Below are positions 1 through 13,301 of a stretch of DNA of 64,000 nt, one piece after another (positions within the stretch are counted from its first letter, which is position 1; the number at the start of each line of letters is the position of its first letter). Origin of the DNA: Candidatus Altimarinota bacterium. Lineage in GTDB: Bacteria > Patescibacteriota > Gracilibacteria > UBA1369 > 2-02-FULL-48-14. Both the position numbers and the translations under genes were made by a program. The stretch lies in assembly GCA_015485665.1 (NCBI GenBank), contig WFTC01000019.1, positions 83 to 64,082 on the forward strand, read 5' to 3'. Below the pieces are notes generated by a model. The model was not told the DNA's origin, ran no database searches, and saw only the letters and a program-made list of their open reading frames with translations.

Positions 1-1
1 T

Positions 2-895
2 GAATTATCCCCAGAAAATGCAGAACGACTAAGCACGCTCAACGGCCTACTGGCATTAGAAGAAAGCGAAGAAAATGCTCAGGTAATGAATGCAGAACTA
101 AGGGGTAGAAAAACTTGGGCAGAAAAAAGTGCAGCGCTTCGTGAAATGAAGGATAGAATTCAAAGAGCAATTCAAAGAGCAATTCAAAGAGCAATTCAAA
201 GAGCAATTCAAAGAGCAATTCAAAGAGCAATTCAAAGAGCAATTCTTCCCGCTGATGCTACCGCCGTCACTGCTTTGGAGTTAAGTACAAGTAAAGCTGT
301 ATCTGAAGCTGCTCAAGCTGAATTATCCCCAGAACATCAAAGAATTTTAGAGCTGCTTCTTGGTGAACGATATCAAGAAGGTCTTTATGCAGGTCGTTAC
401 ACCGCAGAAGAAGCTCCTAAGGCTAAAGTAGAAGCATGGCTAATGGCAGACACTACCCGTTTGGACGCAGCTGCTAAATGGGAAGCTCGCGGAGGAAAGC
501 CTATGTTTGTCGGAGAATTTGAAGGCGAATGGTGGCTAGCGGAATGTTCCGAAGAAGTTCCACCAGATATTCGAAACATTTGTTACGGACCTAATGGTGC
601 AAAACAGCAAGGCCTTTCAGAAGATAGAAATGCCTTAAGTCAGGCAGAAAATCTTGGAGGAAAATTGTTGCCCAAAGGGCTTGGAGATCGATTGGATGCA
701 GCAGGTTTGATCAAAAACCCTAATTCATGGGAATGGCGCATGCACCCTAATAACAGAGATTTAGAAATCGAAGGTTACTTTAAAGATGATGGTATAGCTT
801 GGTTTGCGGGCTATGGCAATGTGTTTTGGGGTGATCCGCTCCTTCACACTGATACTGGTGGGCTGCGCTGCTCGCTAAGTGGTTCAAAACTTTAA
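2..895 (+). CDS. DGR target protein, 5'-partial (reading frame open from the window start), with a C-terminal variable region
   Basis: The frame is open from nt 2 and the listed ORF is 86..895. The C-terminus GIAWFAGYGNVFWGDPLLHTDTGGLRCSL resembles C-type-lectin/DUF1566-like DGR variable-region ends. An 88-nt copy lies 300 nt downstream. The motif ELSPE occurs at nt 2 and again at nt 320. Confidence 0.7.
   Translation, partial: ELSPENAERLSTLNGLLALEESEENAQVMNAELRGRKTWAEKSAALREMKDRIQRAIQRAIQRAIQRAIQRAIQRAIQRAILPADATAVTALELSTSKAVSEAAQAELSPEHQRILELLLGERYQEGLYAGRYTAEEAPKAKVEAWLMADTTRLDAAAKWEARGGKPMFVGEFEGEWWLAECSEEVPPDIRNICYGPNGAKQQGLSEDRNALSQAENLGGKLLPKGLGDRLDAAGLIKNPNSWEWRMHPNNRDLEIEGYFKDDGIAWFAGYGNVFWGDPLLHTDTGGLRCSLSGSKL
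157..245 (+). repeat. Perfect 12-bp tandem repeat AATTCAAAGAGC x7 plus a partial unit, in frame, encoding (IQRA)7
   Basis: Read directly from the sequence. Units start at 157, 169, 181, 193, 205, 217 and 229. Confidence 0.95.
791..878 (+). repeat. DGR variable region (VR) at the 3' end of the target gene
   Basis: It aligns without gaps to 1174..1261. The last 22 nt (GGTGGGCTGCGCTGCTCGCTAA) are identical in both copies, as an IMH-like segment would be. Mismatches cluster in the first 66 nt. Confidence 0.65.
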
Positions 896-935
896 TCCTT
901 GGACCTTTTTCTTCTTTTTTCTTTATCTTTCCCAG

Positions 936-951
936 CCCCGCGTTAGCGGGG
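936..951 (+). terminator. GC hairpin CCCCGC-GTTA-GCGGGG followed by ATTTCGTTTT; target-gene terminator and/or a VR-flanking hairpin
   Basis: A 6-bp GC stem with a 4-nt loop and a T-rich tail, 41 nt after the stop codon and 58 nt after the VR end. Confidence 0.45.
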
Positions 952-1173
952 ATTTCGTTTTGCACTCCAAGCGAGTATCATCTGCACATACGGTGAATAG
1001 TCACTTGCCTCGGTGTAAGCTACCGTAAAGTGCTCCTGCATCCAGGAAGGAGCATGACAAAGTAAAAACCACTTAGGTTTGAGTGAGATTCAGCCCTTCA
1101 TTGAGGCTGAAAAATAGTACCTCGTCGTTGCGACGACGGAAGAATATGGATGAATCTCATCAACAACAGCGCA

Positions 1174-1261
1174 GGTATGGCTTGGAATGCAGGCTATGGC
1201 AATGTGTATCATGATTATGCGATCCGTCGCACTCGTAGTGGTGGGCTGCGCTGCTCGCTAA
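1174..1261 (+). repeat. DGR template-repeat-like copy (TR)
   Basis: This is an 88-nt homolog of the VR. It is not embedded in a credible gene, since ORF 1150..1431 is mostly antisense to avd. Read in the VR frame it gives AWNAGYGNVYHDYAIRRTRSGGLRCSL. Confidence 0.6.
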
Positions 1262-1265
1262 AGGG

Positions 1266-1610
1266 TTACGTACTTTGGACCGATTTAAGCCAACCTCCGA
1301 GCATTCTTCCAATCTCGGAGGTTTTGGCTTGTAGTTGGAATACTAAAGTAGGGTTGACCAGCTTCAGTTCAAGAAGCAAACGACATTTCAATGTAATAAG
1401 CTCGAGAGTCGCACTGGCTTTAAGCAGATAACCTGCTTTCATCGGTTTCGGCGCATTTTTTGCCATGAGCAGTTGCTCAAGCATATCAAGTATCGAGTTT
1501 TCCAAAGAGAGTCCCAAGCCATACTTCCAACGCTTTGAAAGACCTTGGTTTGTCTCTATTATGACTTTGAAAAGCTCATAACTTTTATTGATGATGGGAA
1601 GTGAGGACAT
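1266..1610 (-). CDS. avd: Four-helix-bundle protein, Avd-like (DGR accessory variability determinant family)
   Basis: It carries the pattern IINKSYELFKVI...KYGLGLSLENSILDMLEQLL...EIGRMLGGWLKS, typical of Avd and 23S-IVS four-helix-bundle proteins. I placed the start at internal Met23 of ORF 1266..1676. Confidence 0.7.
   Translation of the reverse strand: MSSLPIINKSYELFKVIIETNQGLSKRWKYGLGLSLENSILDMLEQLLMAKNAPKPMKAGYLLKASATLELITLKCRLLLELKLVNPTLVFQLQAKTSEIGRMLGGWLKSVQST
1289..1328 (+). other. Extended hairpin 28 nt downstream of the TR (13-bp stem with a 2-nt bulge, 12-nt loop)
   Basis: GCCAACCTCCGAG (1289-1301) pairs with CTCGGAGGTTTTGGC (1314-1328). The hairpin lies inside the avd coding sequence on the opposite strand. 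Confidence 0.5.
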
Positions 1611-1983
1611 AGATTTTGGGTTAGGAAGTATATGGAAGGCGTGGTTTGAATTTCGTAAAGGAAAGAGGATGAGCATGGCAATGCACGAATTTCAGTACAA
1701 CCTTGAGGCAAACCTCATGGAGCTGCATCAAGACCTTGTGAATGGCACTTATAAGCACGGTGGTCCGTACAGGTCTTTTGTGGTCTGCGACAACAAACGG
1801 AGAGAGATTTCGGTTTCCTCGGTAAGAGATCGGGTGGTCCACTGCCTCCTCTACGACTACCTTGTCCCGATCTGGGATAAGACCTTCATTTACGACGCTT
1901 GGTCTTGCAGGAAAGGCAAAGGGGGGGGTTACAGGTTCAATAAAAATTCGCATGTGCCTACTACCTATGTATGTGGGTCATAG
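1588..1983 (+). pseudogene. DGR-type reverse transcriptase, N-terminal fragment only (truncated)
   Basis: WKAWFEFRKGKR...YKHGGPYRSFVVCDNKRREISVSSVRDRVVHCLLYDYLVPIWDKTFIYDAWSCRKGKG matches the RT N-terminal motifs (RDRVV, CRKGKG). No catalytic YxDD region follows. Similarity ends at a G8 run (1921-1928), and the ORF stops 20 nt before tRNA-Ser. Confidence 0.75.
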
Positions 1984-2002
1984 GGTTGTGTTGCGCACGT
2001 GA

Positions 2003-2092
2003 TGGCGGAGAGGGAGGGATTCGAACCCTCGAGACCCTTGCGAGTCTACCCGCTTTCCAAGCGAGCGCACTAGACCACTATGCGACCTCTCC
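2003..2092 (-). tRNA. tRNA-Ser (anticodon GGA), long variable arm, CCA encoded
   Basis: Reverse complement: GGAGAGGTCGCATAGTGGTCTAGTGCGCTCGCTTGGAAAGCGGGTAGACTCGCAAGGGTCTCGAGGGTTCGAATCCCTCCCTCTCCGCCA. Cloverleaf folded by hand. Confidence 0.9.
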
Positions 2093-2265
2093 ATCTTACC
2101 GTACTTTTGTATATGAAGTTGAGTATAAGTGCAACCAGATTACTTGCATTTTAGGTGTCAAATGGGAGTTTTAGATCTGAAGTCTATATCTAAAACCAAA
2201 AAAAGCCCCGGAAATTTTTGTGGAGCTCTTTTTGGTGCTTATTCTGTTGCTGAAACCAGTGTATT

Positions 2266-2517
2266 TTATTTTGTACTTTTCTTCAAGGCTTTCTTTGCAA
2301 GTTTGTGAATCTGTTCTTCAAACTTTTTTGGATTTTTTGCCATTGTGCGAAGAGCGCGTGCAGTCATTCGTATCTTAACAGATGTGCCTGTTTTTGGATC
2401 AAAAACACGCTTGCTAATCAAATTTGGCAAGAATCGCCTTTTTGTTCGCCGCTTTGAGTGTGAGACATTGTGTCCACTTCGCGGTCTTGCTCCTGTAAGT
2501 TGGCAAACTCGAGACAT
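2266..2517 (-). CDS. rpmB: 50S ribosomal protein L28
   Basis: MSRVCQLTGARPRSGHNVSHSKRRTKRRFLPNL is the canonical L28 N-terminus. Confidence 0.95.
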   Translation of the reverse strand: MSRVCQLTGARPRSGHNVSHSKRRTKRRFLPNLISKRVFDPKTGTSVKIRMTARALRTMAKNPKKFEEQIHKLAKKALKKSTK

Positions 2518-2597
2518 AATTTCTTTTCTAAATGCTGGGGCATTCTATGCCTTGAGTCCGGCTTTGTCAAAGTATTTTTTCAGGGTAGAATGTAAGC

Positions 2598-3224
2598 ATG
2601 TTTTTGTCTGTTTACTATCTTGCGGCATTGGTGCTAATTCTAACTGTGCATGAGGCAGCTCATGCTTGGATGGCTAATAGGCTCGGAGATCCAACAGCTG
2701 CAAGAGAGGGTAGATTGAGTTTAAACCCAATTAGACATTTAGATTTGCTTGGAACACTTATGCTTTTTGTTGCAGGTATAGGTTGGGGTAAGCCGGTGCC
2801 CGTTAATCCGAGGAATTTTAAAAAGCCAGCAAGAGATGAAGCTTTAACTGCTCTTGCCGGTCCTGTAGCAAATTTTTTAATGGCAATACTTGCCGCAATT
2901 CCTCTTTCTTATTCACCTGATTTTGGATTCTGGGGCTTATTGCAAGTTTTTAGCAATGCAATCATGGAGCTTAGTCTTGTGCTTTTCTTCTTCAATATGC
3001 TGCCCATCCCTCCCTTGGATGGTTCAAAATTTATGCTTGCATTTATTCCTTTTAGGTACAGAGCTTCTTATCATGCTTTTTTAAGAAGAAGCATGCCATA
3101 CTTCATTGTATTTGTAGTTGTAGATCTTTATATTTTTGGGCGAATGTGGGGTGGTTCAATCATTTGGACAGTAGTATCTACTGCAACTTTTTGGCTTAAA
3201 ACAGCTATTTTGCTTTTAATTTAA
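2598..3224 (+). CDS. Site-2 protease family (M50) membrane metalloprotease
   Basis: It has the HEAAHAW (HExxH) motif, LSLNPIRHLD, and multiple transmembrane segments. Confidence 0.8.
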   Translation: MFLSVYYLAALVLILTVHEAAHAWMANRLGDPTAAREGRLSLNPIRHLDLLGTLMLFVAGIGWGKPVPVNPRNFKKPARDEALTALAGPVANFLMAILAAIPLSYSPDFGFWGLLQVFSNAIMELSLVLFFFNMLPIPPLDGSKFMLAFIPFRYRASYHAFLRRSMPYFIVFVVVDLYIFGRMWGGSIIWTVVSTATFWLKTAILLLI

Positions 3225-3319
3225 TGATCATGACAGATTATAGTCGTTGATTGGAACATAATTGGAGCATTTTCATAGGTTGATTGTTTGACCATTTGGT
3301 TTGGAATACGTATCATCTG

Positions 3320-3560
3320 CCCTGCGAAGTCGACGATGTGCGTGAGACTCATCCTGGCGGAATTTCAGCCCCTTCGGGAGCTGACTGAGCAACCCTCAGC
3401 ATTATATCGCCCGAGGACACGGCACCGTGGTCTTTGTATAATTTCTCTAGCTTTTGCGGTTCGGATCTGAGTTTAGGTCCGTTCCGGCAAAAGCATGGTC
3501 GTTTCTTTGCCTTTGGTAATGCTGTGTATCGCGGCTAGTGGTAAGGCTTGACCAATAAAG
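3320..3560. ncRNA. Unclassified candidate structured RNA (GC-rich intergenic block)
   Basis: GC is about 50 percent, against AT-rich flanks. Stems seen: a UUCG-loop hairpin at 3366-3383, a hairpin at 3385-3399, and a roughly 17-bp composite stem at 3450-3494. No credible CDS is present. The strand is undetermined. Confidence 0.35.
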
Positions 3561-3596
3561 TGTTTCACTTTAACTTAACTTTCGTTGAAGTTTTTT

Positions 3597-3671
3597 GCCA
3601 TCATAGCTCAGTGGTAGAGCACCACCATGGTAAGGTGGGGGTCCTGGGTTCAAGTCCCGGTGATGGCTCCA
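3597..3671 (+). tRNA. tRNA-Thr (anticodon GGT), CCA encoded
   Basis: GCCATCATAGCTCAGTGGTAGAGCACCACCATGGTAAGGTGGGGGTCCTGGGTTCAAGTCCCGGTGATGGCTCCA, cloverleaf folded by hand. Confidence 0.9.
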
Positions 3672-3743
3672 GCTTTTCGGATATGAATCATAGCTGAATA
3701 TGCAGCAGTTCATATTTTGTCAATGTTGAATCAAAAATCCACC

Positions 3744-3775
3744 TTGACCGTCTTATCCGGAATTGTTATTAATAA
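3744..3775 (+). promoter_or_regulatory. Candidate promoter TTGACC-17-TATTAA overlapping a perfect 10-bp palindrome TTATTAATAA (Fur/PerR-box-like)
   Basis: The -35 element is at 3744-3749 and the -10 at 3767-3772. The palindrome is at 3766-3775, which is 3 nt upstream of the fur-family ATG. Confidence 0.35.
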
Positions 3776-3778
3776 GCT

Positions 3779-4192
3779 ATGAAAAAAATGCTTGTTCAAG
3801 GTCGGATTAATCACATGAAAGAAGTATGCAGAAAAGGTGGTTTGCGCGTAACCCCTCAAAAGCAAGAAATTTTCCGTGTTGTGGCTTCCACTACTTCTCA
3901 TCCCAGAGCTCAAGATATTTATGAAGATGTTAAAAAGAAATTTCCAAACATTTCTTTTGCAACGGTTTATGATAATTTGCGCAAATTTAAAGATTTGGGT
4001 CTTGTCAGTGAGATGAATTGTCCGGGATCTTGTCAGCGTTTTGATGCGAATATGACTAATCATCATCATATTATAGATAGGGAAACAGGACGTGTAATGG
4101 ACGTGGAATTGGATCAAGGGCAGAGCATACCCATTCCAAAATCCCTTAAAAATGAGTCTATTTCAGATATTCGGATTACTTATATTGTTTAA
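3779..4192 (+). CDS. Fur family transcriptional regulator (PerR-like by context)
   Basis: LRVTPQKQEIFRVVASTTSHPRAQDIYEDVKKKFPNISFATVYDNLRKFKDLGLV is a Fur-family winged helix, and an HHHI motif is present. Confidence 0.85.
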   Translation: MKKMLVQGRINHMKEVCRKGGLRVTPQKQEIFRVVASTTSHPRAQDIYEDVKKKFPNISFATVYDNLRKFKDLGLVSEMNCPGSCQRFDANMTNHHHIIDRETGRVMDVELDQGQSIPIPKSLKNESISDIRITYIV

Positions 4193-4203
4193 CCCACTTT
4201 ATT

Positions 4204-4647
4204 ATGAATAAAGATACAATTATCAGGCAGCTTGGTATACTTTTGGCAAGTAATTATACTTTGTACCTTAAAACACAGAATTTTCATTGGAACGTTAGAG
4301 GTCCTTTTTTTGGAACCTTGCATCTTATGTTTGAAACTCAATACAATGAATTGGCGCTTGCCAATGATTTCATTGCAGAGCGTATTCGCAGCTTGGGAGC
4401 ACTTGCCCCCGGAACTTATAAAGAGTTTGCGGAACTGAGTTTCATAAAAGAGCCTCAAGGAGATTTGAAGGCTGAAGACATGGTGAGAGTTTTATTGGAA
4501 GATCATGAAGCGATGATATCTTTTTCCAAAGAGCTTTTAAATCATGCTGCGGAAGTTGGAGATGAAGGCACTGTAGATCTTGTTTCTACAAGGATTGGAG
4601 AACAAGAAAAAACCGCATGGATGCTTAGAAGCTTCCTTGATAAATAG
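4204..4647 (+). CDS. dps: Dps family DNA-protection/ferritin-like protein
   Basis: LYLKTQNFHWNVRGPFFGTLHLMFETQYNEL is the canonical Dps signature. Confidence 0.9.
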   Translation: MNKDTIIRQLGILLASNYTLYLKTQNFHWNVRGPFFGTLHLMFETQYNELALANDFIAERIRSLGALAPGTYKEFAELSFIKEPQGDLKAEDMVRVLLEDHEAMISFSKELLNHAAEVGDEGTVDLVSTRIGEQEKTAWMLRSFLDK

Positions 4648-4672
4648 TTTATTATTTTTAACCCCATATTTT

Positions 4673-5233
4673 ATGAATTGTCATAGCAATGACGACTTAC
4701 AGCCCGTGCTTGCCATAGGGCATGAAGCTCCTTCTTTCACTGCTCCCGCATATGTGGAAGGCAGTGTAGATGCAAAGATTTCCCTGGAAGATTTCAGAGG
4801 GAAATGGGTGCTTCTTTTTTTCTATCCACTTGATTTCACCTTTGTGTGTCCTACTGAACTTTATGAGTTGAGTGACATGCAGGAAGAATTTGAAAATGCT
4901 AATTGTCAAATTATAGGTGCTTCTGTAGATTCCGTTTTTTCACATCAAGCTTGGGCCCAAAATGATGAAAAGGTAGGGAAAATAAAATTCCCTATAATTT
5001 CTGATTTAAATCATGAAATTTCCTTCAATTACGGAGTATTGCATGAAGAAGGAATGAGTCTGCGTGGAGCTTTCATTATTGATCCGGATGGAGTTTTACA
5101 ATCCATGACTATCAATAACTTGAATGTAGGTAGAAATGCTAAAGAGCTTTTGAGGCTTGTTAAGGCATTTCAAACTGGAGATCTTTGTCCCGCAAGTTGG
5201 GATACAGGCAAAGAAACCCTTGGAAAGGCCTAA
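4673..5233 (+). CDS. 2-Cys peroxiredoxin (AhpC/TSA family)
   Basis: It contains FFYPLDFTFVCPTEL, with the peroxidatic Cys, and a C-terminal GDLCPASW. The start is at the internal ATG 4673, since the ORF upstream of it overlaps dps. Confidence 0.9.
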   Translation: MNCHSNDDLQPVLAIGHEAPSFTAPAYVEGSVDAKISLEDFRGKWVLLFFYPLDFTFVCPTELYELSDMQEEFENANCQIIGASVDSVFSHQAWAQNDEKVGKIKFPIISDLNHEISFNYGVLHEEGMSLRGAFIIDPDGVLQSMTINNLNVGRNAKELLRLVKAFQTGDLCPASWDTGKETLGKA

Positions 5234-5343
5234 GTTGATCCGTTTAACTTGAATTTGCAGAGCGACCGGTGTCCACTGAGGAGCCGGTTGCTTTGGTGAT
5301 GCAGCCAAATATGCTTGCGTCTTCTGAGTTTATTTTGGAATTA

Positions 5344-6441
5344 TCAAGATAAGGGAAGGTAAATTTTAAAGCAGGAGCCTTTATCAGGTTTATTTATAGC
5401 TTTTATTTTACCTCCATGGGCTTCTATTATTTCTTTTGCAAGGGTTAGTCCAATACCAAGCCCACCTGTTTTTCTTGATCTGGAACGACAGCTGCGATAA
5501 AAGCGGTCAAAAATATGCGGCAGATCTTCTTTGGGAATGCCGGGACCTTCGTCTGCAATGCATATAAGCAACTTATTTCTTTTTTCTTTCAATAGAATGT
5601 TTATTTTAGCATTTGCCGGAGAAAATCTAATTGCGTTATTGATTATGTTTTGCAGTACTTGAATCATACGGTCACGATCAAGCATTAAATGATATTTGAC
5701 CGTATGAGCTATGAAATTAACTTTCAGGTTTTTTTCTTTGAGCTGGGGTTTCATTTGCGTGATTACTTTTTTTACTAAATTGTTTAGGTTGATACTGCTT
5801 GGATGAATTGCAAAATTTGGATTTTGTACTTGAGAAAGTTCGCGAACTTCCGTGACCATTGCATTTAATCGTGCTGCCTCTTCTTGAATTAACTCAAGAG
5901 TTTCTACTCTTTTGTTTCCTTTAATTATTCCGTCACTTATGGCTTCAAGATAGCCCGTTATGTTTGTGAGCGGAGTTGCAAGTTCATGGATCATCGTTGT
6001 TATGAGCTCTTGTTGTAAACGTTGATTTTTTTCCAAGGATGCTGCCATGGTATTGAGAGCTTCACTCAATTCCCCTAATTCATCCCTGAAATGTACATTG
6101 ACACGACGTTTGTAGTTACCTTTTGAGATTGATTTAGTTGCACTTATGACTTCTTTGATTGGGCGGGTGAAAAGTACAGATAAAAATAAGCTTACAATTA
6201 AGGCAATTATGCCTGCAACTATTGTTGTGTAGATAAGAGAGCTTTGCAGCGTACTTAAAAAAAGCTTTACACCGGGTATATTAAATGGAGATGAATCGCC
6301 ATGCATGCCATCAAAACTACGCATGAATTTATTGAAGTGATTATTTAAAATATAGCTTGTTGTCCATCCAACCAAAGTAAGACTTACAAAAATAATACCC
6401 ACATAACTGAAAAATAATTTGAGTCTGATTGGAATATTCAT
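5344..6441 (-). CDS. Sensor histidine kinase (two TM segments, HAMP, HisKA, HATPase_c)
   Basis: The H-box is IHELATPLTNI, the G-box is GGLGIGLTLAKEI, and a HAMP-like linker follows TM2. Confidence 0.85.
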   Translation of the reverse strand: MNIPIRLKLFFSYVGIIFVSLTLVGWTTSYILNNHFNKFMRSFDGMHGDSSPFNIPGVKLFLSTLQSSLIYTTIVAGIIALIVSLFLSVLFTRPIKEVISATKSISKGNYKRRVNVHFRDELGELSEALNTMAASLEKNQRLQQELITTMIHELATPLTNITGYLEAISDGIIKGNKRVETLELIQEEAARLNAMVTEVRELSQVQNPNFAIHPSSINLNNLVKKVITQMKPQLKEKNLKVNFIAHTVKYHLMLDRDRMIQVLQNIINNAIRFSPANAKINILLKEKRNKLLICIADEGPGIPKEDLPHIFDRFYRSCRSRSRKTGGLGIGLTLAKEIIEAHGGKIKAINKPDKGSCFKIYLPLS

Positions 6442-7121
6442 AAGTCTTTAAATTTATAACCTACGCCGAAAACGGAAATCAGAAAACGCGGCTTTTTAGC
6501 TGGATCTTTTAGTTTTTTTCTTAAATTTTTAATATGTGCATCAATAGTTCTATCATAAACCATTGCTTTTGAGTCATAGAGAGATTCCATAATCTGCTCT
6601 CTGGAAAATACACGTCCGGGATGAGATGCCAAAAGATATAGCAACTTAAATTCCAACCCTGATAATCTTATGGATTTTCCATTTAGTTGCACGAGCATTT
6701 TTTCAGGATATAGTTTAAGAGGGCCACGTTCAATTTTTTCTGAGATTTGATCTTCCTGCATGTGGCTGCGGCGCAATACTGCTTTTATTCTTGCAATGAC
6801 TTCTTTGGGGCTGAAAGGTTTGGTGATGTAATCATCAGCGCCAAATTCCAAGCCCAGTATTCTTTCAATTTCATCTGACTTTGCACTTAAAATAAGAATA
6901 GGAAATGAATGGCTTTGTCTAATTTCTTTCAAAACGTCCAAACCTTCCATTTCCGGCAGCATACGATCCAATAAAACAAGATCAGGCTTTATTTGTTTTG
7001 CAAGTTCCAAACCTTCTTTGCCGGATTCACTGTGAAGAACACGATAATTTTCTTGTTCGCAGTAAAGTTTAAGCAGGTTTGCAATTTTGGTGTCATCTTC
7101 AATGATTAATATGGTTGTCAT
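6438..7121 (-). CDS. OmpR/PhoB-family response regulator
   Basis: It has a receiver domain (ILIIEDD...DLVLLD...) and a winged-helix C-terminus (VFGVGYKF). It overlaps the kinase gene by 4 nt. Confidence 0.9.
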   Translation of the reverse strand: MTTILIIEDDTKIANLLKLYCEQENYRVLHSESGKEGLELAKQIKPDLVLLDRMLPEMEGLDVLKEIRQSHSFPILILSAKSDEIERILGLEFGADDYITKPFSPKEVIARIKAVLRRSHMQEDQISEKIERGPLKLYPEKMLVQLNGKSIRLSGLEFKLLYLLASHPGRVFSREQIMESLYDSKAMVYDRTIDAHIKNLRKKLKDPAKKPRFLISVFGVGYKFKDL

Positions 7122-7163
7122 GCTTTTATTATAATGTAATTTCTTCCTAAGAATAAGGAAAAG

Positions 7164-7186
7164 AGGGGTCCGCTTCAGAGACCCCT
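7164..7186 (-). terminator. Hairpin AGGGGTC/GACCCCT with a T-rich tail on the minus strand
   Basis: A 7-bp GC-rich stem with a 9-nt loop, followed on the minus strand by CTTTTCCTTATTCTT. It lies downstream of the 7223..7558 gene. Confidence 0.4.
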
Positions 7187-7222
7187 CCGGTGTTCACGCC
7201 TGTGAATGATCCTATCCTAAGT

Positions 7223-7558
7223 TTATTGCTCGGAATGAGGCGCTTGCTTGCCATGGTGTCCTTTGAGACCCTGATTATTTGCTCTTTCTTGAATCATCTT
7301 TACAATTTCTGGGTCTTCGCTGGTTATCTCAATTTGCACCCCATTTTCAAGATCTGTAACTTGGCGATCTATTTCTTCAAAGGGCATCATCATATCAAAA
7401 GGCATCATCATATTTTGATGCATTTCCATATCTTGGCTTTCTTCATCTCCTCCCATAGCGTCTGCAGATACACCTTGAGTAGCCAGACCTGCTCCAAAGC
7501 CTACCACGCCTATGGTTAGAGCTAACAGTCCTGTGCTGAGTGTTTTATTCTTAATCAT
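7223..7558 (-). CDS. Small secreted Met/His-rich protein (possible metal-binding)
   Basis: A signal/TM segment LSTGLLALTIGVVGFGAGLA is followed by MEMHQNMMMPFDMMMPF. I moved the start to internal Met23. Confidence 0.5.
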   Translation of the reverse strand: MIKNKTLSTGLLALTIGVVGFGAGLATQGVSADAMGGDEESQDMEMHQNMMMPFDMMMPFEEIDRQVTDLENGVQIEITSEDPEIVKMIQERANNQGLKGHHGKQAPHSEQ

Positions 7559-7770
7559 TGTTTGAGTGGTTATTGTTAATTTAGGAATCGGATCATCGAC
7601 CGTGGCGTGTGCCTTAATCCGCAAAGATTATCTTCCGTAGATGTGATGTAAGAATGAAAAAGATGTGAAAAATCCGTGAAATTCTATAAATCTCCTAAAT
7701 TTACCTTGAATTTTAGTCTTGGCATTGCTTGCTTAAAAAGAGTAAGTTAGCAGAGAATATATTAGTTTTT

Positions 7771-8463
7771 ATGTCAAAAAGACTTGTTGAAATTGATGCA
7801 CTCCGCGGACTTGCTGTTTTTCTTATGGCTGTGTATCACTTTGCTTTTGATGGATGGTTTATGGGGCTTTGGGATTTGGATTTGAATAATTGGCCTATGT
7901 ATACACTTGGTATGTTTGTAAGATTTGTATTTTTGGGATTGGTTGGAGTGAGTATAGTACTTTCATCCAGAGATTTTGGAGCACAAGTAAAACGTGGTGC
8001 ATATATTTTTGCTTTGGGTATGATTTTGACTATTGGTACGGCAATTATAACTCCGGGTTATACGATTTGGTTTGGCATTTTACACATGATAGGAGTTAGC
8101 ATACCAATTGTAAGTCTTTTCAAAGGAAGACCGCGACTTGCTTTATTTACTGCTCTATTTATTTGGCTTTCCAAATTCTTTATTCAAGGCAAGACTATAA
8201 ACAGCTCCGCTTTGCTTTGGCTTGGAATAAAATATCCAGGGTTTGCAAGTTTGGATTATTTTCCTCTTATTCCTTGGCTTACTGTTCCTCTTGTTGGAAT
8301 TGCCGTTGGACATTATTTATATGGAAAACGCCAAGCTACAAAATTGAAAGTTTTAGCGAAAATCCCCGGACTTACATGGCTTGGACGTCATGCTCTTTTG
8401 GTATATATGATTCATCAGCCGGCAATATTGAGTTTTCTTTATTTGTGGACAAAGATTTTTTAA
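7771..8463 (+). CDS. DUF1624 (heparan-alpha-glucosaminide N-acetyltransferase-like) membrane protein
   Basis: The N-terminal EIDALRGLAVFLMAVYHFAFD motif is present, and the protein is polytopic. The start is at ATG 7771. Confidence 0.6.
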   Translation: MSKRLVEIDALRGLAVFLMAVYHFAFDGWFMGLWDLDLNNWPMYTLGMFVRFVFLGLVGVSIVLSSRDFGAQVKRGAYIFALGMILTIGTAIITPGYTIWFGILHMIGVSIPIVSLFKGRPRLALFTALFIWLSKFFIQGKTINSSALLWLGIKYPGFASLDYFPLIPWLTVPLVGIAVGHYLYGKRQATKLKVLAKIPGLTWLGRHALLVYMIHQPAILSFLYLWTKIF

Positions 8464-8513
8464 GAGTACAAGCACTTGGATTGCAAGTGGAGCTGGTGTA
8501 ATTTGTTGTCGTT

Positions 8514-8960
8514 ATGAAAGCGGTTAAAATCATATATGGAAGTTGTGGGGGAAACACGGAGCTCGTGTGCCTTAAAGTTGCGGATTTGATTCAAGATGCG
8601 GGATATAAAGTCTCCCTTTTGAATGCCAAAATTCAAGTTCCCGATGTTTTTAAAGGAGAAGAGGCACTTATATTGGCGAGTCCAACTTACGGCGTTGGTG
8701 AACTTGAAACTTTTATGGCAAGCCTTTTAAAGGCTGCCGGCGATATGACTTTCGTAGGTAGGCTTTGCGCTGTAATTGCTTTGGGTGATGAAAGGTATCA
8801 TCCGGATTATTACATGGAATCCATGCGCATTTTGGCGCATTGGCTTAAGCAGCGTGGGGCGACTTTTGCGACAGGACCGCTCATGGTTGGTAAGCATCCT
8901 CTTTCTTATTTGGAAACTGCGGTACCTGCGTGGACTGATCGTTTTTTACAAGCACTTTAG
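8514..8960 (+). CDS. Flavodoxin-like protein
   Basis: KIIYGSCGGNTELVCLKVADL matches an FMN phosphate-binding loop, and the size (148 aa) fits. It sits directly upstream of the OFOR genes. Confidence 0.6.
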   Translation: MKAVKIIYGSCGGNTELVCLKVADLIQDAGYKVSLLNAKIQVPDVFKGEEALILASPTYGVGELETFMASLLKAAGDMTFVGRLCAVIALGDERYHPDYYMESMRILAHWLKQRGATFATGPLMVGKHPLSYLETAVPAWTDRFLQAL

Positions 8961-8963
8961 TAT

Positions 8964-10685
8964 ATGAAAAGACTTTGCATTAAAATTGTTGGAGCAAGCG
9001 GAACAGGTCTTTTGAGTACCGGAGATATACTCACGAGAGCTCTGGCAAGTCTAGGCTTTAATCTTGTTTCTGATAGAGAATTCCCTTCCTTAATTAAAGG
9101 TGGACACTCAGTTTACACTCTTAATGTGAGTGAAGATTCAATTTATTCATTGTCTAGACAAGCAGATATTATTGTGGCTTTGGATAAAGAAGGAATGGAG
9201 GTGTATAAAGATCATTTAAAAGATGGTGGTATTTTATTGCACGCCTATGAGCGTTTTGGTGGAATTAAAGATTTGATTGAAGAATTTCAATCTCGTAATG
9301 TTAATGTTATAAGTGTGCCTGGACGAAAAACACTTCAGGAGATTGGAGCTAATCATTTAATGGTGAATGTTTTATTGATTGCCATGCTTTGGAAAGTTTT
9401 GGATTATGATTATGAATATGTGGAGGCTGCAATTAAAGAAAAATTTTCATCCAAGCCAAAACTGCTTGAGATAGATTTGATTGTTTTGAAAAAGGGTTGG
9501 GATCTGGCAGATAAGAAACTTGATTTTTCAAAACCCAAAAAGCCGTCTGCAAGACGCTTCATTAACGGTAATCGTGCAATTACACTTGGAGCAATTCATG
9601 CCGGATGCAGGGCTTATTATGCTTATCCAATGAGTCCGTCAAGCAGTATTTTGACATACATGGCGGAACTGGCTTCAAAAACAGGCATGCTTGTTAAGCA
9701 GGCGGAAGATGAAATTACTGCGGCTCAGCTGACAATAGGCTCAATGTATATGGGTGCCCGTGCCATGACAGCCACTTCAGGTGGTGGGTTTGATTTAATG
9801 ACGGAATCTCTTTCGCTTGTCGGAATGATTGAAGTACCTTTTGTTTGCGTTATTGCACAGCGTCCCGGTCCGGCAACAGGTTTGCCTACTTGGACCGGAC
9901 AAGGTGATTTTCATTTGGCGAAATATGCGGGACATGGAGAATATGCTCGTTTGGTGATTGGAGTTAGTAATGCTCAAGATGCTTTTGATCTTATTCAGCA
10001 TGCTTTTAATTATGCCGAACTTTATCAAATACCCGTTATTGTTTTGACAGACAAACAAATTGCGGAAAGTTTATGGACAATAGAGGACTTTCAAGAAAAA
10101 GCGATTCCTATTGAGCGTGGGCTGGTAAGTGGAGAGGGGCTTGTTTCATCGGATAGGTATAAAATTACAAATAACGGAGTGTCTAAACGGTGGATTCCGG
10201 GTGATGGTCCGGCTTATTATTTTGCAAATGGAGATGAGCACTTGGAAGACGGCAGTTTAACTGAAGATGCAGAGCCGGCAAAAGCCATGATTGCCAAGCG
10301 AATAAGGAAAAAGGAAAGCTTGTTGCAAGCGATTGAAGAGCCTGTGATTTATGGAGAAGAGATTGCAGATATTTCTTTTCTTGGATGGGGGAGCAGCTTG
10401 AATGTGATGCTTGATGTGATTGCTGATTTTGCCGAGCGTGGAGTGAAGGTGAATTATTTGCATTATCGTTATTTATTTCCACTTAAAAAGGGTAAATTGA
10501 ATAATTTTTTCACAAAAAATAAATCCGTTCATTTGATTGAAGGAAATTATACCGGACAGTTCGGACAAGACATTGAGGCGTGTGGACATGAATTTGCCGG
10601 AAAGCTTTTAAAGTGGAACGGAAGAGCTTTTTTTATTGAAGATGTGATTGAATACATAGATCAAAATTTAAATAAAAACTTATGA
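8964..10685 (+). CDS. 2-oxoacid:ferredoxin oxidoreductase, fused gamma-alpha subunit
   Basis: The N-terminus is a gamma-like domain (IKIVGASGTGLLSTGD), followed by an alpha domain (AYPMSPSS, TSGGGFDLM). Confidence 0.85.
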   Translation: MKRLCIKIVGASGTGLLSTGDILTRALASLGFNLVSDREFPSLIKGGHSVYTLNVSEDSIYSLSRQADIIVALDKEGMEVYKDHLKDGGILLHAYERFGGIKDLIEEFQSRNVNVISVPGRKTLQEIGANHLMVNVLLIAMLWKVLDYDYEYVEAAIKEKFSSKPKLLEIDLIVLKKGWDLADKKLDFSKPKKPSARRFINGNRAITLGAIHAGCRAYYAYPMSPSSSILTYMAELASKTGMLVKQAEDEITAAQLTIGSMYMGARAMTATSGGGFDLMTESLSLVGMIEVPFVCVIAQRPGPATGLPTWTGQGDFHLAKYAGHGEYARLVIGVSNAQDAFDLIQHAFNYAELYQIPVIVLTDKQIAESLWTIEDFQEKAIPIERGLVSGEGLVSSDRYKITNNGVSKRWIPGDGPAYYFANGDEHLEDGSLTEDAEPAKAMIAKRIRKKESLLQAIEEPVIYGEEIADISFLGWGSSLNVMLDVIADFAERGVKVNYLHYRYLFPLKKGKLNNFFTKNKSVHLIEGNYTGQFGQDIEACGHEFAGKLLKWNGRAFFIEDVIEYIDQNLNKNL

Positions 10686-11569
10686 ACCTTCCACTTTTGA
10701 ATAATCTTTCAATTTACGAAGAAAGAGTCCGATCTCTTCAGACGAATAATGTGCTGACATGGTGCAGCGGATGTGGAAATTATGGAATTTTGAATGCTGT
10801 AACGCACGCCATGGCACTTGAAAACATAGGCGTTGAAGATGCAATTCTTTGTTTTGATGTTGGTTGTAACGGAAATGCTTCGCACAATATTCAAGCTTAC
10901 ACAATTCATGGGCTACATGGACGGGTTTTAAGTTTGGCAGCTGGAATTAAGATTGCCGATCCAACAAAAACGATTATCGCATTCGGTGGGGATGGCGCCA
11001 CTTTTAGTGAAGGAGTAAATCATTTCGTTCATTCTGTACGAAACAATTTTCCAATTGTATTTATATTTCATAACAATGAGAATTACGGTCTTACAACAGG
11101 GCAGCCTTCAGCTACCACTCCATGCGGTGCAAAAATGAACGCAGCTCCGGATGGGGTAAGCACGCAGCCAATCAATCCTTTGCAATTTGCTCTTAGTCTC
11201 AATCCAAGTTTCGTTGCAAGAACTTACTCTGGTAATGCACAGCACATGACAGCCACTATACAAAAAGGTATGCAGCATAAAGGCTTTGCTTTTATAGAAG
11301 TGTTGCAGGCTTGCCCAACTTACAACAAAGAAACGCCGGATGAATGGTACGCAGCTCATGTAAAAGACATAGTTGAGCATCCGAATTATGATAACCGTGA
11401 CATTTGGGACGCCAGACGTATTGTGGAGGATTTAAATGACACTTTTTATATCGGAGTTTTATATCAAAATACTGACTTACCGGATTTTCTTTCAGTGCAA
11501 CTTAGCAGAGAGGGGAAACTTCGTTTGGTGGATGAAGTGGAGCATGTTAGCATAAATAATTTTTATTGA
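10682..11569 (+). CDS. 2-oxoacid:ferredoxin oxidoreductase, beta (TPP-binding) subunit
   Basis: It contains WCSGCGNYGI and GGDGATFSEG...NNENYGLTTGQ. It overlaps the alpha gene by 4 nt. Confidence 0.85.
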   Translation: MNLPLLNNLSIYEERVRSLQTNNVLTWCSGCGNYGILNAVTHAMALENIGVEDAILCFDVGCNGNASHNIQAYTIHGLHGRVLSLAAGIKIADPTKTIIAFGGDGATFSEGVNHFVHSVRNNFPIVFIFHNNENYGLTTGQPSATTPCGAKMNAAPDGVSTQPINPLQFALSLNPSFVARTYSGNAQHMTATIQKGMQHKGFAFIEVLQACPTYNKETPDEWYAAHVKDIVEHPNYDNRDIWDARRIVEDLNDTFYIGVLYQNTDLPDFLSVQLSREGKLRLVDEVEHVSINNFY

Positions 11570-11630
11570 AATTTTTGATAGCGAACTATGGTCTTCAGAG
11601 CTTTTTTGTGTTAGATTGTCGCCGACTTAA

Positions 11631-13301
11631 ATGAACACTATGAAACGATCTTTTCCACTTCCGCTTGCTTTCTTGCTGGCTGCTTCTTTGTTGTTAAATG
11701 CTTGTTCCAGTCAAGTAGACTTGGGGAAGCAGGTCAGTAATGAAGGTTTAATACCTGAAGCTTTCATTCCGGCGGATACCGGTCTTTTCTTCTCATATTC
11801 TTTGCGTGATGATAATCAATATGAGGCTGTGCAAGTCTTGGAGGAAAAGTTGGGTGAGGACATTGAAATTTCAGACCTTTTCACTCAGCAATTAGATGCT
11901 AGGTATGAAATGGACGGTGTGAGCTACATTGAAGATATTCTTCCAGCACTTGGTGAGCGTTTCAGGGCTTTTTCTGCTTCCAGAGAAGGTAGAGAAAATG
12001 CGGATGTTTTTACTGTGCTTACTCTTGAAAATCCTGATAAAATGAGAGATGTGTTTGATGCTTTGATTGAGCAGTCTTTTATTGAGGAAAAAAAGCTGAG
12101 CAATAATGATGCTTATGTAAATGAAGAAAATGACTTTTACGCTTCAATTTATAAAGATTTACTTTTCATTGCGAATAAGCCAGAGGCTTTGGTTGAGATG
12201 ATTGGCATTAAAGAAAAAGATAGTTTGTGGGAGAATGAAACTTTTAAAAGTCTGATGGAAGATGTGGGATCAGATTATTTGTTTTTCGGTGGCATTTTCC
12301 CATCAATGATTCAGGAAGATATTGATTTGCCTGCCGGTTTGGGGCTTGGCAGTATTTCAGAGCTGATTGACAGACAGTTTCTTGTTCTTCGTGCTGAAGA
12401 AGAAGGACTGCGTTTTGATGCTTATGTCATAGCTGATGAAGATGCAGCTAGAGAAGCTGATGTTTCTTTTGATGTTATACCAAGAGAAGATGCTTATTTA
12501 ATGCGAAATGTGCCTGCCGGCGGATTAATGGCATATTTTGAATCTTACGGATTGCAGCAAAGTTTTGCAGAGGCGAATGCCGTTGGTGGAAATGCTGCCA
12601 ATATGGAGCAATTTACGAGCTTTATTCAAAATTATTTCGGAATGGATTTTCAAGATGAAATTTTAAGTTTCATGGATAAAGGCTTTCTTTTTGCAATTCA
12701 TAAAAATGCTAAAGGTGTTGCGCCCGGATTCAGTATTATGTTTGATGCTTCTTCAAATACCGATTTGGCGGATGAATTTTTGAATAAATTAGATGGACAG
12801 TTAGCATCTTTACAATTGCTCTTTGAGCAGAGTTTGCCGGGAGCGATAGTAAAGAGCGATGTTGAAATTATGGGATCAACTCTTGCCAAGATTAAAGTTG
12901 ATATGAATGCGATTTCAGAAAATGAAAATTATGATTCTTTGCCACAAATGCTTAAAGATAGTGAAATTCAATTAATCTATGGCATGGTGGATGACATGAT
13001 GCTTATAAGTACGGCAAGCATATGGGAAGAAGAAAGTGATCTTAGTGTTTATGACAGTGAGCTTTATCAAATGTTAAATGGGAAATTGGAAGATGTAGAT
13101 CAAGGACTCTTTTTAGTAGACACGCAAAGTATATCTGATTTCTTTGCTTCTCTTAGAGCTTTACGTGATCAGTTGGGGCTTGATAACAGTGAAATCATTT
13201 TGACTGCAGAGGATATTCTTCAAGGATTTAAAGGGTTTATAGCCTCAGGCAAAACTGAGACTTATGAGTCTCATATTGCAGGCTATCTCATGATTGATTA
13301 A
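11631..13301 (+). CDS. Hypothetical lipoprotein
   Basis: It has a signal peptide with lipobox LLNAC. The protein is acidic (556 aa), and I recognise no domain. Confidence 0.55.
   Translation: MNTMKRSFPLPLAFLLAASLLLNACSSQVDLGKQVSNEGLIPEAFIPADTGLFFSYSLRDDNQYEAVQVLEEKLGEDIEISDLFTQQLDARYEMDGVSYIEDILPALGERFRAFSASREGRENADVFTVLTLENPDKMRDVFDALIEQSFIEEKKLSNNDAYVNEENDFYASIYKDLLFIANKPEALVEMIGIKEKDSLWENETFKSLMEDVGSDYLFFGGIFPSMIQEDIDLPAGLGLGSISELIDRQFLVLRAEEEGLRFDAYVIADEDAAREADVSFDVIPREDAYLMRNVPAGGLMAYFESYGLQQSFAEANAVGGNAANMEQFTSFIQNYFGMDFQDEILSFMDKGFLFAIHKNAKGVAPGFSIMFDASSNTDLADEFLNKLDGQLASLQLLFEQSLPGAIVKSDVEIMGSTLAKIKVDMNAISENENYDSLPQMLKDSEIQLIYGMVDDMMLISTASIWEEESDLSVYDSELYQMLNGKLEDVDQGLFLVDTQSISDFFASLRALRDQLGLDNSEIILTAEDILQGFKGFIASGKTETYESHIAGYLMID

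Follow-up and report, generated by a model that had tools for sequence, protein, structure and literature searches.

The left end of the analysed stretch of DNA (64,000 nt in full, hereafter the window) raises the question of whether the block within its first 2,092 nt is a diversity-generating retroelement (DGR) and, if so, whether this element still diversifies its target gene. A sequence-only reading had described it as a DGR cassette with an unusual layout. Our analysis indicates that the block is probably the remnant of a chromosomal DGR of the CPR type, which was stopped by the overwriting of its template and by a deletion in its reverse transcriptase (RT) gene. The features on which this conclusion is based are listed in Table 1.

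Table 1. Features of the DGR-derived block and its right-hand neighbour in the window
Feature	Position (nt)	Strand	Remarks
Target gene	2-895	+	Open from the window start, 5' end beyond the window; stop codon TAA at 893-895
VR	791-878	+	C-terminus of the target gene; codons for the last ~35 residues
GC-rich VR 3' end, GGTGGGCTGCGCTGCTCGCTAA	856-877	+	Invariant; putatively IMH-like
GC-rich hairpin and T-run	936-961	+	40 nt past the target stop codon; intrinsic terminator (terminator scan)
-10-like hexamer TATCAT	976-981	+	~8 nt upstream of the leader RNA; read from the sequence
Structured leader RNA	989-1168	+	Directly 5' of TR; ~175 nt; intact
Corrupted TR	1174-1261	+	Adenine-depleted, VR-like copy in the TR position; position as in all relatives
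avd (114 aa)	1266-1610	-	Antisense between TR and RT; family matches; colinear with 17 relatives
RT remnant	1591-1983 (start 1591/1594)	+	Codons 1-110 to nt 1923, then 18 unrelated codons and a stop
G8 run	1921-1928	+	At the deletion junction; read from the sequence
tRNA-Ser(GGA)	2003-2092	-	Conserved right-hand neighbour of the cassette; ARAGORN and Rfam

TR, the antisense avd and the RT gene are all adjacent, ordered and oriented as in Architecture B3, TR-(avd)-RT, which accounts for 90% of CPR DGRs (Wu et al. 2018, PMC5758913). The same geometry is common to about 40 (>35) related loci, with the same spacing in every one examined, and the layout that had appeared unusual is an ordinary one in this lineage. 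The window also shares with CPR-type DGRs a target gene that lies upstream on the same strand and carries VR at its C-terminal end, as well as a chromosomal location, here in a Peribacteria/Peregrinibacteria-like genome. The nearest relatives of the RT are encoded by MAGs of Peribacteria, Gracilibacteria and Saccharibacteria, and the gene order to the right of the cassette (RT, tRNA-Ser(GGA), L28 and M50 protease) is the same in locus L009. Unlike these elements, the copy in the window is defective, with an RT that is cut after motif 2 and a TR that is depleted of adenines. Partial deletions were also found in three related loci (L039, L049 and L020), and three others (L034, L036 and L038) are orphan targets without a leader remnant. 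The use of alternative genetic code 25 was considered and rejected, because TGA ends 13 of the 43 long ORFs.

The target ORF, whose C-terminal end reads ...GIAWFAGYGNVFWGDPLLHTDTGGLRCSLSGSKL, has an extension of variable sequence on its N-terminal side and, at approximately nt 320-892, a DUF4256 domain. The ORF itself had been correctly recognized; as for its supposed lectin/DUF1566-like C-terminus, Pfam matched DUF4256 (PF14066; E=8.8e-6, 25.9 bits against a cutoff of 27) and not DUF1566 (PF07603). The same family matches the target homologs P0121-P0129, and a profile search yielded at least 8000 DUF4256 proteins, for which a literature search found nothing. An AF2 model of the target (pLDDT 85.7, pTM 0.85), in which the VR loop (residues 165-173) has a pLDDT below 50, had no Foldseek match with E<=0.001 in PDB or BFVD; the best PDB match was EgtB (E=0.62, TMq 0.29), and a poxvirus C-type-lectin-like protein appeared at E=6.9. 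No sequence relatives of the target were found in PDB. The hypervariable core of VR comprises 11 codons (824-856), and the same columns are hypervariable across the homologs P0121-P0127. As in other DGRs, the target gene carries VR in its 3' end and TR is non-coding.

The Avd-like and RT-like ORFs noted in the sequence-only reading were both matched by profiles of the expected families. The start of avd was placed at the ATG at 1610 by comparison with 17 relatives, whereas the mechanical ORF spans 1266-1676; an exact look-up of this 136-aa ORF returned no record. The avd and RT starts overlap head-to-head by approximately 20 nt. Avd matches NF033474 (DivGenRetAVD; E=1.2e-15, 57.6 bits, cutoff 80) and PF22296 (bAvd; E=1.8e-9, 38.5 bits, cutoff 40), in both cases over the whole profile although under the curated cutoffs. 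Two substitutions, Y15F and E88P (NET to NPT), occupy positions that are invariant in the relatives. Residues 1-110 of the RT stub are 81-95% identical to the RT N-termini of complete DGR cassettes and match TIGR04416 at positions 23-105 (E=3.6e-8). The stub retains motifs 1-2 (RDRVVH...SCRKGKG) but has none of the palm motifs, among them YGDD and the D of motif 3, and no catalytic motif. As the stub stops short of the palm domain, Pfam RVT_1 had no match on it.

Compared with syntenic relatives, approximately 630 nt that hold all of the catalytic motifs are absent from the RT interval of the window. In L009 and L008, a full RT is directly followed by tRNA-Ser, and intact RT relatives are 320-343 aa in length. 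Homology to the relatives breaks off at 1922/1923, where a G8 run is present in the window and G3 in the relatives. When the whole window was compared with a repaired full-length relative RT, residues 1-110 of the stub were the only part matched, and neither the missing part nor any other RT sequence was found in the 64 kb. The stub itself has barely decayed, with a single deviation (R84C) over 39 columns of >=95% conservation, a level also found among intact homologs. Together with the full avd ORF, this suggests either that the lesion is very recent or that parts of the element are still used.

The sequence-only reading was also right about a second copy of the VR segment that lies about 300 nt downstream and outside any credible gene. 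The 88 nt at 791-878 recur at an offset of 383, with 295 nt between the copies and 71 of 88 bases identical, and the similarity reaches 103 nt at 78% identity. The second copy occupies the TR position of all relatives, ends 324 nt before the RT start and lies outside any gene with family support, the overlying 93-aa ORF having no family match. The mismatch pattern, however, differs from that of the related loci. VR/TR pairs of the >35 related loci have 85-100% of their mismatches at TR adenines, whereas in the window TR adenines account for only 8 of the 19 mismatches in a 94-nt span, the others there being at seven G, two C and two T, and for 7 of the 17 within the 88 nt. The expectation of mismatches almost exclusively at TR adenines therefore fails. 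The earlier proposal of a DGR cassette consequently holds for the origin of the block, in which all four parts are represented, but not for a working cassette, since the RT has no catalytic motif and the mismatches are not adenine-specific. Furthermore, adenines make up 17 of the 94 TR positions (18%), as opposed to ~29% in 23 relatives, and only two AAY codons are left.

The history of this TR can be read from a comparison with L037, which has the same target subfamily and the same short-P3 leader as the window and an intact TR, with 13 of its 14 VR/TR mismatches at A. In codon positions 1 and 2 of the variable core, all 10 differences between the TRs of the window and L037, which belongs to a different organism (69% identical at the nt level across this region) and is used as a stand-in for the ancestral TR, fall on L037 adenines; the remaining differences are at third codon positions. 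The window TR is therefore itself an adenine-mutagenized copy, and this accounts for the failure of the VR/TR pair to show adenine specificity. Its 3' flank is still of the TR type (CTAAAGG, as in L037): VR and TR share a GC-rich 22-mer ending in CTAA, after which the next bases are GTGG in VR and AGGG in TR, similar to GGGG and AGGT, respectively, in L037, a candidate IMH/IMH* difference. A second, independent corrupted TR was found among the natural loci, in L056.

Directly 5' of TR lies a structured leader RNA. An alignment of 14 loci contained 51 base pairs, with 95.7% of the cells paired, and 27 pairs with compensatory changes, compared with 9.6±2.0 in shuffles and 5-8 in slid controls. 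The G-U pairs place the RNA on the + strand. When scored with a model built without it, the window gave 133.5 bits (E=4e-33), the only match in 64 kb. Six of the seven helices of the clade are present; inner helix 4 is absent, as it is in L037. None of the Rfam RT-associated motifs (RT-1 to RT-19, including RT-10 of BPP-1) matched window positions 1-2300 at E<=1, where the tRNA was the only Rfam match, and none matched positions 4100-5100 of the intact relative L003 at E<=10. The hexamer at 976-981, where relatives have TACAAT or TATAAT, was not called by a consensus promoter scan and is a putative promoter of the TR transcript, as read from its sequence and position. A GC-rich hairpin equivalent to that at 936-961 is present at the same place in all related loci. 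It may correspond to the GC-rich inverted repeat that other DGRs carry downstream of IMH, and would then have a role in homing, as deduced from Wu et al. 2018 (PMC5758913). Neither a leader RNA upstream of TR nor a DUF4256 target is mentioned in the CPR-DGR literature examined.

The DGR of Bordetella phage BPP-1 (mtd-avd-TR-brt) has the same basic components, namely a target with a C-terminal VR, TR, a four-helix Avd protein and RT, and also shares the GC-rich repeat end, the downstream GC hairpin and, with the relatives of the window, adenine-specific mutagenesis. The differences concern avd, which in BPP-1 is co-oriented and upstream of TR, and the target, which has a C-type-lectin fold in BPP-1 and belongs to DUF4256 in the window. 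In addition, the priming RNA of BPP-1 (Sp; Rfam RT-10, PMC5737381) is located 3' of TR, whereas the conserved structure in the window is 5' of TR. The antisense avd stretch that lies 3' of TR in the window was considered as a structured spacer similar to Sp and rejected, because it has no conserved fold (-3.3 kcal/mol, 3 compensatory pairs). Corruption of the BPP-1 TR was reportedly observed by Doulatov and colleagues in 2004 when IMH* was replaced by IMH. As in that experiment, the TR of the window has gained adenine-derived substitutions and lost its value as a master copy. Unlike it, the event was natural, occurred twice in the clade (the window and L056) and is accompanied by no visible IMH*-to-IMH change in the window.

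By analogy with the Bordetella phage, the intact element would have produced a + strand transcript with the structured leader and TR, which would have been bound by an RT-Avd complex and reverse-transcribed with random misincorporation opposite adenines. The resulting cDNA would have replaced the last ~30 codons of the DUF4256 protein gene, up to the GC-rich IMH-like boundary. In one of the two proposed lesions, a diversified copy overwrote TR. It may have come from homing of cDNA into TR or from a VR allele through conversion, the two routes being equally possible, and with it most of the adenines that could give rise to new diversity were lost. The present VR and TR would then both descend from an ancestral ...NQNNANNHNQN... 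template, each diversified independently of the other. In the other lesion, the ~630-nt deletion with the G8 run at its junction removed RT codons 111 to the end, including the three catalytic aspartates. Since the leader RNA, avd and the target gene all remain intact, the decay appears to be recent. It is most likely that the DGR no longer diversifies its target and that VR is now frozen.

The unusual mismatch pattern, which by itself would fail a DGR detector, might be taken to mean that no retroelement is involved, the repeat being a paralogous domain repeat of the usual kind and the short ORFs having arisen by chance. The probability of this is negligible. In position, the second copy coincides exactly with the TR of >35 cassettes, having a covarying leader RNA on one side and an Avd gene on the other; both RT and Avd show strong homology; and the repeat, in contrast to the common paralogous repeat that the sequence-only reading had kept in mind, occurs nowhere else in the window (76 of 101 matches, compared with 47 of 101 at the next best place). 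Another possibility is that the organism has an intact RT and that the truncation arose in the assembly, as an artefact of falsely joining sequence at the G-run. The junction is indeed a G8 homopolymer in a metagenome assembly, and poly-G is a trouble spot for some Illumina chemistries. Eight bases are, however, far short of the k-mers that assemblers use, the flanks align with syntenic relatives in the colinear pattern of a simple deletion, and the independently corrupted TR already marks a decaying element. The junction is also identical in a public scaffold, though this may derive from the same assembly. We therefore consider such an artefact very improbable.

A further alternative, unlikely but less remote than the artefact, is that the cassette is still a functional satellite, for which a second DGR elsewhere in the genome provides RT, and possibly Avd, in trans to act on the local leader-TR RNA. 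Leader RNA, avd and target are intact; two related MAGs each contain two cassettes (JAHIVE01 with L008 and L010, CAYLWB01 with L011 and L013); and adenine-specific VR/TR mismatches are also seen in leader-TR modules that have neither avd nor RT, namely L037 (13/14), L043 (13/16) and L055 (7/7). Moreover, the public scaffold, which is identical to the window, stops at window position 781, 10 nt before VR, and an assembly break of this kind may point to a population in which VR is heterogeneous; an exact-pattern metagenome scan gave 0 matches to other VR alleles of the window population. Against this explanation, 10 of the 17 mismatches in the 88-nt repeat are at non-A TR positions, so that the present TR cannot be the source of the present VR and no homing has been fixed since TR changed. 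The loss of AAY codons from TR, the Avd substitutions at otherwise invariant positions and the failure to find a second RT in the 64 kb also count against a satellite and favour a stopped element.

As a further DGR, this locus adds little, because CPR bacteria are already known to contain many DGRs with exactly this layout. It is valuable as a dated snapshot of DGR death, in which RT has gone but the target, avd and the leader RNA have been kept. The overwriting of a template by its own product was predicted from phage experiments and is found here twice in nature. Such relics will be missed by detectors that demand adenine-only mismatches and an intact RT, and a C-terminus that looks hypervariable may be frozen. 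The covariation-supported leader RNA upstream of TR also provides a lead for B3-type DGRs, in which the RNA that recruits RT-Avd is not yet defined.

A separate observation concerns the relatives only. In some of their RT genes the reading frame is broken at a simple-sequence tract, which in every case has exactly one repeat unit too few, and a phase-variable mutator would follow from such genes; a literature search for a phase-variable DGR RT found nothing. We tentatively raise the possibility, which we regard as doubtful, of a diversity generator of the CPR lineage that is switched on and off by hypermutable RT tracts and relies on a dedicated, undescribed leader RNA of ~200 nt 5' of TR, with the window as an end state of template self-mutagenesis and RT loss at a G-tract. 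A deletion joining the G-tract of KGKG to the G9 tract of site B was rejected for the window, because the sequence past the G8 run is unlike that past site B. The idea that all RTs of the clade are split into two ORFs, which arose from short homologs (120 of 120 among the matches listed were <=218 aa), was likewise discarded: this reflects retrieval bias, and 21 of the 27 loci from the DNA scan have single-frame RTs of the intact length. The tracts of the relatives sit at two hot spots. Those seen are G9/G10, C9, (AC)n and (CA)n, while (GA)n and (CT)n tracts were deduced from translated ORF ends.

The locus is a genuine but degenerate DGR of an already known type. The components proposed in the sequence-only reading were all recovered. 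The target ORF lies on the + strand, open from the window start to 895 (C-terminal end ...GIAWFAGYGNVFWGDPLLHTDTGGLRCSLSGSKL), and the 88-nt second copy of its end (791-878) is present at 1174-1261 (offset 383), with 71 of 88 bases identical; the similarity extends to 103 nt at 78%. The same reading had allowed that this might be a common domain repeat, and no third copy resembling it was found in the 64 kb. The antisense ORF described as Avd-like matches Avd models over their full length (NF033474, 1.2e-15; PF22296, 1.8e-9), both scores being slightly below the curated cutoffs. The + strand ORF thought to carry a DGR-type RT N-terminus (1591-1983) aligns with the N-terminal part of RT models (TIGR04416 positions 23-105, E=3.6e-8), and over 110 residues it shares 81-95% identity with RTs of Peribacteria, Gracilibacteria and other Patescibacteria. 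Two points required correction. The target end had been called DUF1566-like; Pfam assigns the protein to DUF4256. The order TR (+), avd (-), RT (+), regarded as unusual, is the norm for the lineage, because the cassette follows Architecture B3, TR-(avd)-RT, which is found in 90% of CPR DGRs and is almost absent elsewhere (Wu et al., PMC5758913).

Four routes led to related loci: proteins matched in the RT and target searches (L002-L006 and L034-L038), species-representative genomes scanned with the RT N-terminus (L007-L033), metagenomes scanned with a leader RNA motif (L039-L059), and a comparison of synteny with the window. Intact relatives share a single fixed order: a DUF4256 target (+) with a C-terminal VR, a GC-rich terminator hairpin, a conserved non-coding stretch of ~200 nt, TR (+), avd (-) adjoining TR, and RT (+). 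The VR lies 400-440 nt upstream of TR, and the TR end is separated from the RT start by 322-336 nt. In 23 relatives of the first locus sets, TR adenines take 85-100% of the VR/TR mismatches and make up 22-32% of TR; the second locus set gives the same picture. The RT and avd starts overlap head-to-head by ~20 nt in the relatives and likewise in the window (1591-1610), so that each promoter must sit within the other gene; across relatives, no other DNA of the cassette is as well conserved as this overlap (CTCATAACTTTTATTGATGATGG).

The window element is chromosomal. The neighbours at L009, a locus from the genome scan, match those of the window (RT, tRNA-Ser(GGA), L28 and M50 protease), and in several loci tRNA-Ser genes lie antisense just past the RT end or past a former cassette; across loci, these genes bear three anticodons (GGA, TGA and GCT). 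TGA serves as a stop codon in the window, and the genetic code is therefore standard. One end of ENA scaffold REYS20-1_SAMN12239307_METAG-scaffold_28 matches window 781-12517 exactly. This scaffold stops 10 nt ahead of the VR, and a break at such a place can signal VR heterogeneity in the population.

DUF4256 is a very large family, for which no solved structural relative was found. The target of the window is still intact, and its DUF4256 domain has a confident model (pLDDT 85.7), in which the VR is a low-confidence loop between strands. Foldseek gave no significant match with this model; the best PDB match, EgtB (E=0.62, non-significant), has an FGE/lectin-like domain, and we take it as a hint, not as evidence, that the target fold may be lectin-like. 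Among the nearest homologs of the target (P0121-P0127), the common scaffold is G[LI]AW-x-AG[YC]G-x-V-(11 variable residues)-GGLRCSL. The N-terminal extension of the window target contains a perfect 12-nt tandem repeat of ~7.5 copies (157-245), which encodes (QRAI)7, is missing in all homologs and could vary in length. A 19-nt direct repeat (1-19 and 319-337, 18/19 identical) encodes ELSPE(N/H), by which the extension echoes the motif of the first helix in the DUF4256 domain.

The window has lost the catalytic half of its RT, as well as its template adenines. When compared with the frame-repaired RT of L003 (344 aa), only residues 1-110 match (1591-1923), and the rest has no match anywhere else in the 64 kb. 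For all relatives, homology ends at 1922/1923, where the window has a G8 run (1921-1928) in place of their G3; the 74 nt from this run to the tRNA show a weak likeness to the RT-tRNA spacer of L009 and L007. Relative to L009, ~630 nt are missing, namely everything from motif 3 on, including DIKKFFD and YGDD. The stub deviates once (R84C) at 39 highly conserved columns, within the range of 0-3 seen in intact homologs; the deletion is therefore recent. The window avd, at 114 aa and colinear with 17 relatives, is still intact; it departs from them at two otherwise invariant positions (Y15F and E88P). At L009, avd is broken by a 22-nt tandem duplication (L009:2820-2845) that leaves an 87-aa ORF, and the VR/TR pair is clean despite this (25/26 mismatches at adenines).

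The window VR and TR differ at 19 of 94 nt, and only 8 of these mismatches hit TR adenines; adenines make up 17/94 (18%) of TR, and two AAY codons are left. L037, a locus among those of the nearest target homologs, keeps a leader RNA and an intact TR, which encodes W N A G Y G N V N Q N N A N N H N Q N G G L R C S L K and differs from its own VR at adenines in 13 of 14 mismatches. The aligned window TR reads ...Y H D Y A I R R T R S.... Within the core of 11 codons, the two TRs differ 10 times at codon positions 1-2, every time at an L037 adenine, which makes the window TR itself an outcome of adenine mutagenesis. Third positions account for nearly all of the remaining differences (4 in the core; 7/8 in the flanks). 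The VR and TR of the window each descend, by separate diversification, from an A-rich ancestor. The present TR is no template for the present VR, and no homing from it has been fixed, because 10 of the positions at which the VR differs from it in the 88-nt repeat are not adenines in TR. TR was corrupted either by homing of cDNA into it or by conversion from an allele of the VR; its 3' flank remains TR-type (CTAAAGG). A second, independent corrupted TR occurs at L056 (A content 12%; 4/12 mismatches at A).

By the BPP-1 paradigm, a + strand leader-TR transcript would recruit RT-Avd, cDNA would be made with misincorporation opposite adenines, and this cDNA would take the place of the VR up to the GC-rich boundary. 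The relatives display the adenine-specific outcome. We consider the window cassette most likely a relic that was inactivated recently and whose VR is frozen. Complementation in trans by a second cassette is unlikely: two cassettes occur in some MAGs, and leader-TR modules that lack an RT and show a clean adenine pattern are known (L037, L043 and L055), but the present VR is not derived from the present TR. Still less credible is that the RT truncation is a mis-join at the G-run. Decay in the clade takes a series of forms: partial deletions (L039, L049, L020 and L044), TR-only modules and orphan targets. The modules at L037:4332-4600, L043 and L055, whose mismatches are adenine-specific and which have neither avd nor RT downstream, either represent intermediates of decay or are satellites served in trans.

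The leader RNA and the tract-interrupted RTs of relatives are the leads worth pursuing. The leader, ~175-215 nt long, sits just 5' of TR in B3 DGRs of the Peribacteria type, whereas the structured RNA known from BPP-1 lies 3' of TR; no conserved fold was found 3' of TR, antisense to avd. The alignment of 14 loci (A1) contains seven helices with 51 pairs (95.7% of cells paired). Compensatory changes occur in 27 pairs, compared with 9.6±2.0 in column shuffles (0/500 reach 27) and 5-8 after a shift of the partners by 1-3 columns, and conserved G-U pairs set the strand as +. A covariance model (R1) built without the window scores the window leader at 133.5 bits (E=4e-33, the sole match in the 64 kb) and the L037 leader at 107.7 bits; both lack inner helix 4, and the window leader is still intact. 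The model found no remnant in the orphan target loci L034, L036 and L038, and only weak matches, correctly placed, in Saccharibacteria-type cassettes (E 0.1-0.2). Rfam gave no match, including the RT-associated motifs of Weinberg et al. A -10-like box upstream of the leader was not called by the promoter scan.

Features of the window and of related loci, the latter with positions in each locus
Feature	Locus	Position	Strand	Remark
Leader RNA	window	989-1168	+	between terminator and TR; alignment A1, model R1
G9 tract in RT	L002	5533-5541
G9 tract in RT	L003	5533-5541
G9 tract in RT	L008	3530-3538
G9 tract in RT	L020	3526-3534
G10 tract in RT	L010	3530-3539		G9 site, in frame
(AC)16 tract in RT	L005	5515-5546
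RT tract	L045			site A
RT tract	L057			site A
Corrupted TR	L056	1964-2031		as oriented for analysis; all differences from intact TR type at adenines
tRNA-Ser	window	2003-2092	antisense
tRNA-Ser	L009	4033-4122	antisense
tRNA-Ser	L008	3975-4064	antisense
tRNA-Ser	L014	4290-4379	antisense
tRNA-Ser	L034	5752-5843	antisense

Many RT genes of the clade hold simple-sequence tracts, at two sites, and short RT ORFs from the protein search often terminate there in THTHTH, RERERE, SLSLSL or glycine runs. G9 is present in four diverged lineages (L002, L003, L008 and L020, loci picked regardless of RT state), and the gene is split likewise by C9 (L057), (AC)16 (L005) and (CA)18 (L045). We found no earlier report of tract-interrupted DGR RT genes in the literature searched. 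Each of the seven broken RTs falls short of a full-length ORF by exactly one repeat unit; one added unit yields a 325-343-aa ORF in each except L020, which reaches just 289 aa because of a second lesion. The pattern resembles phase variation of the mutator, or its control by slippage. At L020 (2615-2998), the RT, which bears G9 plus a second frameshift, starts only ~180 nt after the leader, so TR and most of avd have been deleted.
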